Shown piece by piece: positions 15,796 to 20,103 of a stretch of 27,551 nucleotides of DNA. The stretch is from positions 1 to 27,551 of the forward strand of contig CAYXHO010000002.1 in the NCBI GenBank assembly GCA_964465215.1. The letters run 5' to 3'. The position numbers were made by a program, and so were the translations under genes. The stretch's first letter is position 1. Every line of letters begins with the position of its first letter. The stretch comes from an uncultured Candidatus Saccharibacteria bacterium (lineage in GTDB: Bacteria > Patescibacteriota > Saccharimonadia > Saccharimonadales > AWTP1-31). Below the pieces are notes generated by a model, which saw nothing but the letters and a program-made list of their open reading frames with translations, did no database searches and had not been told where the DNA came from.

Positions 15796-16329
15796 ATGGC
15801 CCAAAAACAAACTGTTAATGATGTTAACCCTGCATTATGCGAACGTGCCCCAATAGATGTTGGGAGCGACATAGTTATGACTACAGACAATTTCGATGAA
15901 CTAAGACTCCGGATTAGCGAAGAGGCTATAATTCGTTATAATAATTCTTCAGTAGTCTTTAAACGTGATAGATGGGTAGAGAAGCATCCCTTAGTCATAC
16001 CGGTTTTTCAACTTTGGGGATCGGCCGGAGAGCTACCAATCGTTGACGCTGTTCCTGCTGGTCATTCAAGTCGAATTGGCTATGCGACAGCCTGTATTGC
16101 CGCACTACATACACATAATCTTTCACCCGAAAAACTGGATGTACTTGAACAGTTTAGTTACCGCTCCCTCAGGCGTGCTTGCAAAAGTCCAGCAATCCGA
16201 AACAAATTTGAGTATTTTGATGATGATAATGATTTCAAGTTATTAAATCAGCGTCTAGAAAGAGATACTAAACTCTCTCGGATTATACAGTGGGACGGAG
16301 CCGGCACCTGGCTACCTGTTAACTTATAA
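15796..16329 (+). CDS. Hypothetical protein (orphan)
   Basis: 177-aa ORF with its own promoter and strong SD; no family recognised. Confidence 0.7.
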   Translation: MAQKQTVNDVNPALCERAPIDVGSDIVMTTDNFDELRLRISEEAIIRYNNSSVVFKRDRWVEKHPLVIPVFQLWGSAGELPIVDAVPAGHSSRIGYATACIAALHTHNLSPEKLDVLEQFSYRSLRRACKSPAIRNKFEYFDDDNDFKLLNQRLERDTKLSRIIQWDGAGTWLPVNL

Positions 16330-16351
16330 AACAATAGTCGGTCATTATGCT

Positions 16352-16436
16352 TGGTGCGCGAGAAAGGACTTGAACCTTCACGCCTTGCGGCACTAGCTCC
16401 TAAGGCTAGCGTGTCTACCAATTCCACCACTCGCGC
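16352..16436 (-). tRNA. tRNA-Leu, anticodon TAG, CCA encoded
   Basis: Acceptor GCGCGAG/CTCGCGC plus A-CCA, D-arm TGGTGGAATTGGTAGACA, anticodon arm CTAGC-CTTAGGA-GCTAG, long variable arm, T-arm GAAGG-TTCAAGT-CCTTT. Confidence 0.98.
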
Positions 16437-16498
16437 ATAAGTAGTATGAGACGTATGTCATTCTACCATAACACCTTACGACAGCCAATATGCACGAG

Positions 16499-17185
16499 CT
16501 AACGAGTGGCGAGTTCTTTGTAGCGTAACGCGGGCATTAAGGCAGTTATAACTGTAGCCATCAGTGACACAACTTGTCCGGCAATACCGAATACCGAAAA
16601 AGAAGGAATGAGCACGCAGGCAAATAGCAATCCGTACATTGTCCAGATTGGACGCCACTGACCTTTAGTCATAGCAAAACTACTACGCAAAGATTCAAGT
16701 ACTCCGACGTTTTTATCGGCCATGACAAATGGTGCCATTGAAAGGCGAGTAAATACCCAAACAGAGGGCAAGATAAATGCGACAAAACCGAGCAGTATCC
16801 CAAGTCCCATCGCTAGTTGCAGTACAAGCAATGGGAAAAACTGATTTCTTGTAGCTTCCCACAGCGAAAACGCTGAAACACTGCGTTTACGAATAATGGC
16901 TATTTGTAACTGAAGTTGCATAACCTGAAAGACCATCAGCAGAATTAGGAAGGCAATGGTAATCTGGAGATTTAATCCAAAAATTGACTCCATTATTAGA
17001 CGAAGATTTACTGGTTGGCCTTTTTCAAGTACAAAATTGCGACCATGCAATACACTTACCAAACTCAAAATAGATGTTAGTGCATACACTCCAACAACGG
17101 GACGGATATGAGCTTTGATAAGCTCCCAGCTTTTGGCCAGCAGTTCGGTAGCCGGCATATACTGCTTAGTATGTGTGTGTTTCAT
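16499..17185 (-). CDS. Integral membrane protein, resembling YciC/UPF0259/DUF975-type proteins
   Basis: About 5-6 hydrophobic segments; LLAKSWELIK and RLSMAPFVMADKNVGVLESLRSSFAMTKGQW patterns; SD AAGGAG. Family assignment is from memory of the pattern only. Confidence 0.75.
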   Translation of the reverse strand: MKHTHTKQYMPATELLAKSWELIKAHIRPVVGVYALTSILSLVSVLHGRNFVLEKGQPVNLRLIMESIFGLNLQITIAFLILLMVFQVMQLQLQIAIIRKRSVSAFSLWEATRNQFFPLLVLQLAMGLGILLGFVAFILPSVWVFTRLSMAPFVMADKNVGVLESLRSSFAMTKGQWRPIWTMYGLLFACVLIPSFSVFGIAGQVVSLMATVITALMPALRYKELATR

Positions 17186-17237
17186 GAATTCTCCTTAACA
17201 GCATTATGACCGAATAAAGCATTGAATGAAATAGAAG

Positions 17238-17266
17238 TTGCGTTGTAAGTACGTTTATGTTTTACT
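17238..17266 (+). promoter_or_regulatory. Putative promoter of the his leader/hisGE unit
   Basis: TTGCGT (17238-17243), 17 nt, TTTACT (17261-17266) preceded by TG-n; 6 nt before leader ATG 17273. Confidence 0.5.
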
Positions 17267-17272
17267 AGCACT

Positions 17273-17326
17273 ATGATTTTAGTTAGTCAATTACACGTAC
17301 ATATCCGGCCGGATCGTCTCGGTTAG
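17273..17326 (+). CDS. Putative histidine leader peptide MILVSQLHVHIRPDRLG (17 aa)
   Basis: ATG 17273 to TAG 17326, with His codons CAC (17294-17296) and CAT (17300-17302). It sits directly upstream of an antiterminator/terminator pair and hisG. Confidence 0.75.
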   Translation: MILVSQLHVHIRPDRLG

Positions 17327-17359
17327 CTTTGTATTTGTTTTTGCAAACTACGCCGGGGC
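17316..17359 (+). promoter_or_regulatory. Antiterminator hairpin of the attenuator
   Basis: GTCTCGGTTAG (17316-17326) pairs with CTACGCCGGGGC (17348-17359), with G-U pairs and one bulge. The helix continues as TTTGTA (17328-17333) with TGCAAA (17342-17347) and sequesters the 5' arm of the terminator. Folded by eye. Confidence 0.65.
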
Positions 17360-17381
17360 AACCCCGGCGTTTTTTATTTTT
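17350..17381 (+). terminator. Intrinsic terminator (attenuator) upstream of hisG
   Basis: ACGCCGGGG-CAA-CCCCGGCGT is a perfect 9-bp stem followed by TTTTTATTTTT, on the sense strand 35 nt before the hisG ATG. Confidence 0.9.
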
Positions 17382-17415
17382 GTTAACAATTTACTAACTA
17401 TTACAAGGAAAAACT

Positions 17416-18367
17416 ATGAACTATATACCAGGAAATTACTCGGCGGCAGAAATCGTGCGAGCTGGACAAACTATTGCACTACCTAAAGGAAGGGAGACAG
17501 AAGGCGTAGCCGAATGGCTCACCAACATTGGTCTTACCCTGCCGGACTTTGAACGGAGGTGTCTTCACCGTAACTGCACAAAATCGAACTTTCTACCGCT
17601 CGCGAGGTAAAGATATACCCGAAGAGGTTCTAAGAGGAATTGCAGATGTTGGATTTTGCGGCAGTGATGTATTTAACGAGGGATACTTGGCTGGAAAATT
17701 CAAAACTCTAGGCTTTAAAGCTATTACCGGGGCAGGATGTGATTTGGTTCTAGCAGGAAAACCATCTCTCAATTTGCGAAAACCGCTAAGAATTGCAACG
17801 AGCTATCCGCTGCAGGCAATCAAATATTGCATGCAAAGGGGCTATACTATCGATTTGCAAGCTTTAACTGAGTTTGGTGGCGGCATAGAAGGCAAGTTAG
17901 TCTCGGATGCATTCAACGCTATTGTCGATCTTCGGAGCTCTGGCGAAACACTGCGTGACAATGGTCTTGAAGTATTCGACTGCTTTGACACCATCCAATC
18001 CGGCGTCGTCTATAAGCAGCAACCGACTGATTGTGCCGACCTACTTGTGGATCCTTGGCGAATATACGCTGAGGCACAGACTTTGCAAAATCGCTATCAG
18101 CAAGCTCAAATGGCCACAGAAATACCTACTCGTAAATCAACCATACAACTACTCATGGATGGGAATAAACGACGAAAGAATCTTGGTGAAGAAGCTGCCG
18201 AATTAGTTACCGCAGATGCACTTGGCATTGATATCGCAACCGAAGTTGCCGATGTTTCTTTTGCTACCAAGGTTATTGGTTTGGCAAATGGTATTTCACC
18301 TATCCGAGCACTTAACGAAGAGCTACTGCGTAATTCTGTACCTGATTTACCGAATCTACCATGTTAA
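17416..18367 (+). CDS. hisG: Short-form ATP phosphoribosyltransferase (HisG) fused to a phosphoribosyl-ATP pyrophosphatase (HisE)-like domain; split into two frames joined by a putative +1 programmed frameshift at 17563-17569
   Basis: Frame 1 (17416-17610) has IALPKGR. The +1 frame has RGKDIP, GIADVGFCGSDVFNE, RIATSYP and AIVDLRSSGETLRDNGL, then HisE-like KNLGEEAAE...EVAD. Joining after Leu50 (CTT) into ACC 17567 gives 316 aa. A pseudogene or sequencing error cannot be excluded from one sequence. Confidence 0.8.
17555..17569 (+). promoter_or_regulatory. Putative +1 ribosomal frameshift signal GGAGG-TGT-CTT-CAC-C
   Basis: Internal SD-like GGAGG 3 nt before an in-frame CTT, as in prfB (AGGGGG-UAU-CUU-UGA-C). 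The A-site codon is His CAC. Confidence 0.7.
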
Positions 18368-18373
18368 ATAGAG

Positions 18374-18385
18374 TACAATAGGAGC
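18374..18385 (+). promoter_or_regulatory. Possible internal -10 (TACAAT) and SD (AGGAG) for hisS
   Basis: TACAAT 18374-18379 lies 9 nt before ATG 18389; AGGAG follows immediately. Confidence 0.5.
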
Positions 18386-18388
18386 TAT

Positions 18389-19693
18389 ATGTCACTATCT
18401 ACACAACCCTATAAAGGGGCCCGGGATTTCTACCCGGAAGATCAACGATTACAAAACTATATCATCCGCACGTGGAGCAAGGTGCTAGAGCAATTTGGCT
18501 ATGAAGCGTACAACGCTCCGATGCTAGAAAGCATTGATTTATATAAGGCCAAGTCAGGTCAGGAGATAGTCAACGAACAAACCTACACCTTTACCGATCG
18601 AGGTGGTCGTGAAGTGGTTATTCGCCCTGAAATGACTCCTTCAGTCAGTCGCATGGTGGCTGCCCGGCGCCAAGAACTTGCCTACCCGCTACGCTGGTAT
18701 AGCATCCCAAACCTCTGGCGCTATGAGCGAGCTCAGCGCGGTCGGCTTCGCGAACACTGGCAACTCAATGCCGACCTATTTGGTGTTGAAGGGTTAGAAG
18801 GTGAGCACGAGATGATCCTCATTTGTGATGCCATTCTAAAAGCATTTAGTGCTTCTCGCGGAATGTACCAGATCAAGATTAATAGCCGTCAGCTGATGGA
18901 TTCAATCATGTTAACCTATTTGGGCCTTAATAAAGCTCAGGCACATGATCTATCTAAGTTAATCGATCGGTTACACAAAATGCCACGAGCCACATTTGTG
19001 GCTGAAGCAGATGCGCTGTTAACGCCCAGCCAAAAGCAAGCCGGTGTGAGCGAACGGCTTTTAGAAGTACTTGACGTTGATAACCTTGCCGATTTACCGG
19101 AAGGTCTGATGGATAATCCAGCTGTATTAGAGTTACAAAAGCTTTTTGACATGCTTGAAGATGGTGGCGTTACTAACGCCGTGTTCGACATTAGTATCAT
19201 GCGTGGTTTCGACTACTATACCGGCGTCGTCTTTGAACTAACCGATACAGACCCAGAAAACAATCGCTCCATGATGGGTGGTGGACGCTACAATGGATTA
19301 GTTGGGTTGTTTGGCGTTGACCCCGTACCAACCATTGGTTTTGGTTGGGGTGATGTCACGATGATAAACTTCCTATCATCACACGATCTTTTGCCAACAC
19401 TGCCCTCAGAAACGGAAGTGTATGCCATCCTTATTGGAGATGTCTACCAGCAAGCCCAGAAGCTACTGGCTGCACTTCGATCTGAAGAATTAACCGTTGC
19501 CGTTGACGCTAGTGACCGAAAAATGAGTGCCAAGCTCAAAAGTGCTGTCAAAAAGAATATCCGTTTTGCTCTCTTTATTGGCGAAAAAGAACTTGCCGAA
19601 GGTCGCTATAACCTTAAAGATCTTCACAGTGAAACAGAGCAAACACTGAGTCCTGAGAGGATTGTCAGCACTGTTTTAGATGTCCGTAAGTAA
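18389..19693 (+). CDS. hisS: Histidine--tRNA ligase
   Basis: PYKGARDFYP, IRPEMTPS, motif 2 RYERAQRGRLREHWQLNAD, RGFDYYTG, GGGRYNGL, GFGWG, and a C-terminal anticodon-binding domain, which argues for HisS rather than HisZ. Confidence 0.95.
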   Translation: MSLSTQPYKGARDFYPEDQRLQNYIIRTWSKVLEQFGYEAYNAPMLESIDLYKAKSGQEIVNEQTYTFTDRGGREVVIRPEMTPSVSRMVAARRQELAYPLRWYSIPNLWRYERAQRGRLREHWQLNADLFGVEGLEGEHEMILICDAILKAFSASRGMYQIKINSRQLMDSIMLTYLGLNKAQAHDLSKLIDRLHKMPRATFVAEADALLTPSQKQAGVSERLLEVLDVDNLADLPEGLMDNPAVLELQKLFDMLEDGGVTNAVFDISIMRGFDYYTGVVFELTDTDPENNRSMMGGGRYNGLVGLFGVDPVPTIGFGWGDVTMINFLSSHDLLPTLPSETEVYAILIGDVYQQAQKLLAALRSEELTVAVDASDRKMSAKLKSAVKKNIRFALFIGEKELAEGRYNLKDLHSETEQTLSPERIVSTVLDVRK

Positions 19694-19695
19694 GT

Positions 19696-20103
19696 CTAGG
19701 CAGTAGTTGGGTCGGCATATGGTTGGCCCAAAACAACACCTTCGGGTAAATAACTCGGTACCCAATCCTGTGTCAAAACAGCACCCCAAGCCTTGGTGAC
19801 GCGTGTCCAATTTTGTTCATTGACACCGATTGCGCCAAATAGTCTATGAATCTCTGGACCGCGTTGCATATCTACTGCTATTTCTGTGTGTCAAACTGCA
19901 ATTGACCTACCGTCAACAGAGTATCTGGCTATAACGAGTCCATTTGCATACATCGAGCGACACAATTCTGAGATTACATAATACATATCATCAGGAAGCG
20001 CCTCAGTTAATTCAGTACTGCTCATAAAATTGTTTCTGCCCAGTAACTGTTCGTACACTAACTGTTCTCCAGGGTAAATAAATCTGTTTATTTCATCAAT
20101 CAT
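19696..20103 (-). pseudogene. Orphan ORF interrupted by one in-frame TGA (19891-19893): pseudogene, readthrough gene, or two tiny ORFs
   Basis: ATG 20103 lies 7 nt after a perfect TATAAT (plus-strand 20111-20116). 70 codons precede the TGA, and the same frame stays open for 64 more codons to TAG 19696-19698. Confidence 0.55.

Follow-up and report, generated by a model that had tools for sequence, protein, structure and literature searches.

The HisG-HisE-like gene of an uncultured Candidatus Saccharibacteria bacterium encodes a predicted transframe protein of 316 amino acids that contains no His, and it is likely, at a probability of roughly 70%, that this composition is a selected and conserved property of an operon built for expression when charged tRNA-His is scarce. 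The gene lies in a stretch of 27,551 nucleotides, hereafter the window (contig CAYXHO010000002.1 of assembly GCA_964465215.1), in a source genome of 778 kb in 96 contigs that is 94% complete. The transframe product joins the 50 codons of frame A to the 266 codons of frame B, and the only His codon along the reading path is the CAC that sits at the shift site itself. An earlier note on this DNA had counted zero His in 316 residues and had singled out that CAC as the only His codon met, and translation of the 50 and 266 codons confirms both statements. The note had also pointed to an altered His position in the HisE part, and this agrees with the alignment of EVADLWFH in 2A7W to EVADVSFA in the window's protein, where the position is occupied by Ala.

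Gene layout and operon context

The features of the locus are collected in Table 1. The N-terminal HisG motif IAxPKG, encoded by frame A, is kept in 16 loci of the clade that carry the split gene. Positions 2-32 of the HisG model TIGR00070 match frame A and positions 36-172 match frame B from its first codon onwards; since the model coordinates are contiguous across the junction, the two frames are joined correctly. In relatives, the 0 frame that is read without a shift ends 2-14 codons past the His codon.

Table 1. Coordinates of the predicted operon features, numbered from the first letter of the window.
Feature	Position	Strand	Details
Leader peptide ORF	17273..17326	+	17 codons and TAG; His codons CAC 17294-17296 and CAT 17300-17302
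Predicted antiterminator	17316..17359	+	5' strand is the last leader codons and stop; 3' strand is the 5' half of the terminator
Intrinsic terminator	17350..17380	+	9-bp stem, 8 GC pairs, T tract; kept in genomes G009 and G019
Frame A, HisG-like gene	17416..17565	+	ATG 17416; 50 codons, 0 His, ends Arg-Cys-Leu (...ERRCL)
Shift cassette GGAGG-TGT-CTT-CAC-C	17555..17569	+	SD-like GGAGG 17555-17559, 3-nt spacer, P-site CUU 17563-17565, A-site CAC 17566-17568
Frame B	17567..18367	+	266 codons to 18364, then TAA 18365-18367; HisG catalytic core and HisE-like C-terminus
0-frame stop TAA	17608..17610	+	Reached without a shift; 64-aa product
PRPP-loop-like motif of HisG, DLRSSGETL	17927..17953	+	Aligns with DITETGRTL of T. 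maritima HisG (1USY)
HisE-like (PRA-PH) domain	18125..18313	+	EExxE at 18185-18202; canonical His position is Ala, GCT 18263-18265
hisS, bona fide histidyl-tRNA synthetase	18389..19693	+	21 nt downstream; TIGR00442 331.8 bits, cut-off 286.75

The predicted operon order is leader peptide, HisG-HisE-like gene and hisS. Homologous leader peptides (..NQ[H/L]H[L/V]H[I/M]xPExxG-stop) with two or three His codons lie 82-97 nt before the gene start and were found in nearly all loci having enough upstream sequence. The region 17300-17361 folds with a free energy of -21.7 kcal/mol (z -2.7), with CGGTTAG conserved. Searched against Rfam with a permissive threshold, positions 16300-18500 matched only a tRNA-Leu, and the leader yielded neither a T-box nor another type of riboswitch. 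On the minus strand, some 1 kb before the operon, positions 16352-16436 encode a tRNA-Leu(UAG). The leader peptide also precedes the unshifted homologues L022, L026 and L029, and the candidate attenuator is therefore more widespread than the frameshift.

No terminator was found between the HisG-like gene and hisS; in each of the 16 frameshifted loci hisS follows immediately, with gaps of -4 to 354 nt. The neighbouring hisS scores under the cut-off of the hisZ model, and its product in the window holds 6 His in 434 aa. HisRS from the frameshifted loci is itself His-poor, with 0.88% His over 12 orthologues and a minimum of one His in 434 residues, compared with 2.19% in the proteome.

Conservation of the shift site

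The pattern AGG-NNN-CTT-CAY is kept in most of the 16 loci, and the variants are GAG TGT CTT CAC, AGC TTA CTT CAT and AGG TCG GTT CAT. The shift codon is CTT followed by CAY in 15 of the loci and GTT followed by CAT in the remaining one, and the A site holds a His codon, either CAC or CAT, throughout. An SD-like AGG or GAG at 3-nt spacing is present in most loci and is weaker in L017, and AGG-TGT-CTT-CAC-CG is identical in three genera although the flanks diverge. RNA folding predicted nothing significant at the shift site. The genome contains, on contig C53, a tRNA-Leu(GAG) that reads CUU and can re-pair with UUC, and its tRNA-His(GUG) is encoded by a single gene copy.

The HisG-like site has a geometry of the prfB type, with CUU in the P site, an SD-like element at 3 nt and a possible +1 re-pairing, all kept in orthologues. 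Its A-site codon is a His sense codon instead of a stop, and its product is not a release factor. The prfB of the source genome (C16:11830-12870, L035) matches positions 2-352 of the RF2 model in a single open frame; it is unshifted, and an in-genome precedent for such a site is therefore absent. Two other routes to a frame-B product were rejected. Independent initiation in frame B is contradicted by the position of the first frame-B start codons, which lie 54 codons (G009) and 19 codons (G019) past the site and inside conserved motifs, and transcriptional slippage is contradicted by a site without a homopolymer and by contigs without an indel.

His content of the single sequence and of the HisG family

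Zero His in 316 residues has a binomial probability of 9e-4 at the rate of the proteome, for which 760 non-overlapping ORFs of at least 100 aa (2.19% His) served as a proxy. His counts across these ORFs are overdispersed: six of the 367 ORFs of at least 250 aa are His-free (1.4% of the large ORFs other than the transframe product), and when the ORFs are ordered by binomial tail the transframe product comes only 10th of 761. The five other His-free ORFs of this size encode an FtsX/MacB permease, a secreted Ig-domain protein, an S41 peptidase with a PDZ domain, an ABC-2 permease and a pilin-like protein. All five are membrane or secreted proteins, which leaves the HisG-like product as the only one of a cytoplasmic type.

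HisG is a classic example of low cognate bias (Alves and Savageau 2005, as cited in PMC4209129). Among 150 diverse representatives of canonical HisG, the short forms (n=46) contain 0.76% His and the long forms (n=65) 1.06%, with no His at all in 20 of the 46 and 8 of the 65, respectively. A second set of short HisG from Acidobacteria, Alphaproteobacteria and archaea (n=38) contains 1.20% His, and one of its members is His-free. At these short-form rates (0.76-1.2%), the probability of zero His in 316 residues rises to 0.02-0.09, and the absence of His from the source sequence, taken alone, is only marginally unusual. The Poisson estimate of about 0.2% in the earlier note is too strong for a single sequence because the HisG family is His-poor and 21 of 84 canonical short forms over both sets are His-free; the depletion that it was meant to express is nevertheless real at the level of the clade.

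Depletion of His across the clade

Among 401 genomes of the same order, 33 were found by profile search to have a HisG-like gene. The split gene and the same shift site were found in 16 loci from several Saccharibacteria families, and besides these there was one truncated copy and one copy that contains stops. The 16 transframe products are 200-362 aa long and share 26-61% identity with the window's protein. Together they contain three His in 4603 residues (0.065%); 13 of the 16 have none and three have one each, in one case as the last residue of a C-terminal extension. At 88% and 80% identity, two closer relatives, both from other metagenomes, likewise have no His when the correct start is used. 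CAY triplets are nonetheless frequent in the other two frames of the 16 loci, with 104 and 129 off-frame against three in-frame, and Trp, Cys and Met are present in the 16 orthologues at ordinary levels.

The branches of a maximum-likelihood tree built from the 16 proteins add up to 13.2 substitutions per site. Sequence evolution was simulated on this tree with AliSim under the site-homogeneous model LG+F+G, with 300 runs per setting. With a His frequency (piH) of 0.76% and a His-free root, the simulated sets contained a mean of 27 and a minimum of 11 His, and at most nine of their sequences were His-free, compared with 13 observed; the other settings gave still more His. Under a site-homogeneous model, these results support the conclusion that His has been actively kept out of the clade beyond the usual bias of HisG. 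The strong signal therefore lies in conservation across orthologues and not in the statistic for one sequence.

The proposal of the earlier note that the His-free product is under selection is accordingly upheld by the orthologues, the off-frame CAY triplets and the tree simulation. Its expectation that homologues would also lack His was likewise correct for close and distant orthologues alike. Its related expectation that His-free proteins of this length would be uncommon in the proteome held only with a qualification, in that they do occur among the large ORFs and the others are all of membrane or secreted types.

Twelve unshifted HisG-like genes of the same order contain three His in about 2740 residues, with zero or one His each, and this set includes both hisS-linked genes with a leader peptide and canonical genes with an upstream hisZ. 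Since the unshifted homologues are also His-poor, the His-free composition is not tied to the frameshift as such. Within this lineage the trait follows HisG as a whole, and more especially the His-attenuated operon, and some of it may be due to inheritance. Among the unshifted genes, the short hisG of L023-L025 and L033, with zero or one His, is immediately preceded by a canonical hisZ-like gene that shares 28% identity with HisRS. In L022, L026 and L031, the unshifted hisS-linked HisG-like gene lies about 1.3 kb from hisS, with another gene between the two.

Maintenance of both reading frames

Substitutions relative to the 88%-identical relative are distributed over the three codon positions as 5/1/9 in frame A before the site and as 24/12/102 in frame B after it; if the sequence after the site is read in frame A, the distribution becomes 102/24/12. 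The third-position bias thus passes from frame A to frame B, which indicates that purifying selection switches frame exactly at the site. In a collection of 5.8 billion proteins, the close homologues number 13; each is a truncated frame-B call of 167-277 aa, and no full-length unshifted form was found among them. A contig from an RNA library, which belongs to a strain of about 90% identity, bridges the site without an indel, as do independent assemblies. The RNA-library contigs cover parts of the gene and show that the sequence is present, as distinct from its transcription, level or strand, and gaps in their coverage are uninformative.

One locus, L021 (G261:C5), has the site GGG AGG TGT CTT CAC and a profile match that contains one TGA and one TAA, and may be decaying.

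Alternative explanations

Inheritance alone would account for the composition if the protein descends from a His-poor short HisG in which most sites are intolerant of His, without any selection specific to the operon. The His-free members of both canonical short-form sets (20 of 46 and 1 of 38) and the presence of zero or one His in every HisG-like gene sampled in the order, shifted or not, are in keeping with this explanation, but we consider it unlikely. The clade has 0.065% His against 0.76-1.2% in canonical short forms, sets simulated at the lowest family rate always gained at least 11 His even if the root had none, the added HisE domain is without its canonical His in every member, and the co-transcribed HisRS is His-poor too. 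A sampling accident in one genome would agree with the six His-free proteins among the 367 large ORFs and with the rank of the transframe product, 10th of 761; chance is effectively refuted, however, because the absence is conserved across orthologues, recurring in 13 of 16 at 26-61% identity and in the two closer relatives. In addition, every other His-free ORF of this size encodes a membrane or secreted protein.

The gene could also be a decaying pseudogene or split gene, the frameshift being damage and the composition then saying nothing about a translated product. The remaining his pathway was not found in this genome, gene callers predict truncated frame-B products only, stops interrupt the copy in L021, and the frame changes once more ahead of HisE in L012, all of which would suit decay. 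This explanation is nevertheless very improbable: the shift site is kept across families, the third-position bias follows frame A before the site and frame B after it, both frames have stayed open over 13.2 substitutions per site, G009 and G019 lack a usable frame-B start near the site, and neither the independent assemblies nor the RNA-library contig has an indel there. The earlier note's argument against simple pseudogene decay is thus well founded, as the site recurs in all these genomes and the bias switches frame with it. Avoidance of His for a functional reason apart from starvation, such as metal binding or a pH-sensitive residue in a regulator that binds HisRS or histidine, would fit a protein that is orphaned from its pathway and has therefore changed function. 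It is, however, improbable, as the His content of the proteome is ordinary (2.19%), nothing else in the sequence hints at such a function, and the operon's two putative His-codon sensors would give a direct reason for the depletion.

Proposed mechanism

We infer synthesis of the protein under His starvation from the His-codon leader and the shift site. Selection for a His-free product would then act in an operon with two successive His-tRNA checkpoints, attenuation followed by frameshifting, ahead of a product that requires no further His codons. At the first, the two His codons of the leader and the antiterminator and terminator would let transcription proceed only if ribosomes stall for His-tRNA. 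At the second, a ribosome supplied with plentiful His-tRNA would read the CAC and terminate 14 codons on; if His-tRNA is scarce, the ribosome would pause with CUU in the P site, and tRNA-Leu(GAG) could slip +1 onto UUC, so that frame B is read. With no His in the 50 codons before the site or in the 266 after it, a shifted ribosome would meet no more hungry codons, and the protein could therefore be completed in the very condition that triggers its synthesis.

HisG-like and HisE-like domains and possible function

Frame B matches the Pfam HisG family PF01634 (1.9e-21, 77.1 bits, cut-off 25.5), and on its own it scores 79.2 bits against TIGR00070 (cut-off 75.75). The HisE-like part matches PF01503 (PRA-PH; 2.7e-6, 28.1 bits, cut-off 21.3), and its score of 23.1 against TIGR03188 is under the cut-off of 42.7. 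The closest match among solved structures is 1USY (E 1e-11), with common motifs, and the PRPP-loop and acidic residues D121, G126, T128, N132 and E108, which align to 1USY, are invariant or almost so across the clade. The HisE metal motifs GEEAAE and EVAD are present in the product. The canonical HisE His, which follows ADL(L/W)(Y/F), is replaced by A, T, V, G or N in all clade members with the domain; the HisE part is absent from some members and lies in another frame in one (L012). In that locus (G400:C60), the HisE-like segment follows ...AWRMQQ-stop in a different frame, at a point some 30 nt short of where the HisG part ends; the segment is itself without His, and the frame change is either a second shift or an assembly error.

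None of the HisA/F, HisI, HisD and HisB families (PF00977, PF01502, PF00815 and PF00475) was found on searching the 94%-complete genome, although all 14 control genomes were positive. The HisG-HisE-like protein is therefore an orphan of its pathway, and with no other his biosynthesis genes found, its role is probably not histidine synthesis. Ligand binding or catalysis may persist, given that signature residues of both HisG and HisE are kept. We infer that the most likely roles are a starvation function linked to HisRS or a coupling of hisS expression through the frameshift. A partnership with HisRS resembling that of HisZ and HisG would be an attractive idea, and the gene may equally be a spacer whose translation ties hisS expression to the shift. 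A complex prediction for HisRS and the HisG-like protein, entered as two frame pieces, gave a score of 0.00, which speaks neither for nor against such a partnership.

Relation to known systems

Depletion of the cognate amino acid from proteins induced by its starvation is a known statistical tendency, and the present protein resembles such cases in containing little of the amino acid whose shortage would induce it. The canonical HisG of that tendency has 0.76-1.2% His; here the depletion is absolute in the window's protein, has been held over 13 substitutions per site, and spans the fused HisE and partly HisRS. A working cognate pathway is a further mark of low cognate bias, whereas the other his genes were not found in this genome, and the usual rationale of rebuilding the pathway is therefore inapplicable. 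What is new here is an extreme form of a known cognate bias in a new setting: the depletion is absolute and long-held, in an organism that is apparently unable to make histidine.

The shift site resembles that of prfB (RF2), where an SD-like element at 3 nt precedes CUU UGA C, in its geometry, its slow A-site codon and its potential for a +1 slip of tRNA-Leu. In the present site, a His codon (CAC or CAT) replaces the stop, the re-pairing would take place on UUC, and the quantity sensed would be His-tRNA-His and not RF2. The yeast +1 site of Ty1 and ABP140 (CUU AGG C) also relies on a P-site slip at CUU that is driven by a slowly decoded sense codon (PMC5009743). The slow codon in yeast is read by a constitutively rare tRNA, whereas the codon here belongs to the amino acid to which both the leader and hisS point. 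A review of recoding knows of no hungry-codon frameshifting that yields a starvation-specific transframe protein (PMC5009743).

Leader attenuation of hisL and pheST similarly places a short leader ORF with codons for the sensed amino acid before a terminator and antiterminator. The present leader differs in having only two or three His codons, in controlling a synthetase gene together with an orphan HisG-like gene, and in the addition of a second, translational His-codon checkpoint. The best solved relatives of the protein are the short-form HisG(S) enzymes that work with HisZ (T. maritima 1USY, L. lactis 1Z7M and P. arcticus 5M8H), with which it has motifs in common, and its neighbour is likewise of the HisRS family, as HisZ is. 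The neighbour is here a full HisRS, however, HisE is fused, the other his genes were not found in the source genome, and binding to HisRS is hypothetical.

A search of the literature found no work on hisG in Saccharibacteria. With the evidence evenly balanced, the operon may be the first natural case of a programmed +1 frameshift at a sense codon (a hungry codon) that acts as an amino-acid sensor. In such a design, the His-free protein would be made only if His-tRNA-His is limiting; translation up to the hisS start would raise HisRS, as an aminoacyl-tRNA analogue of RF2 autoregulation; and the pair of a full HisRS and a short HisG could show, in a living system, the kind of HisRS-HisG association that gave rise to HisZ-HisG. 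The His-free composition lends independent support to this candidate His-sensing +1 frameshift, a design so far undocumented in nature, in which a single His codon in a prfB-like cassette would decide whether a His-free protein is made. The same composition bears on how ultra-small auxotrophic Saccharibacteria may sense nutrient supply.

Occurrence in environmental datasets

The region 17200-19700 is present nearly whole in wastewater metagenomes from one study and in part in wastewater metatranscriptome contigs from another. Small shares of it were also found in sludge and digester runs.
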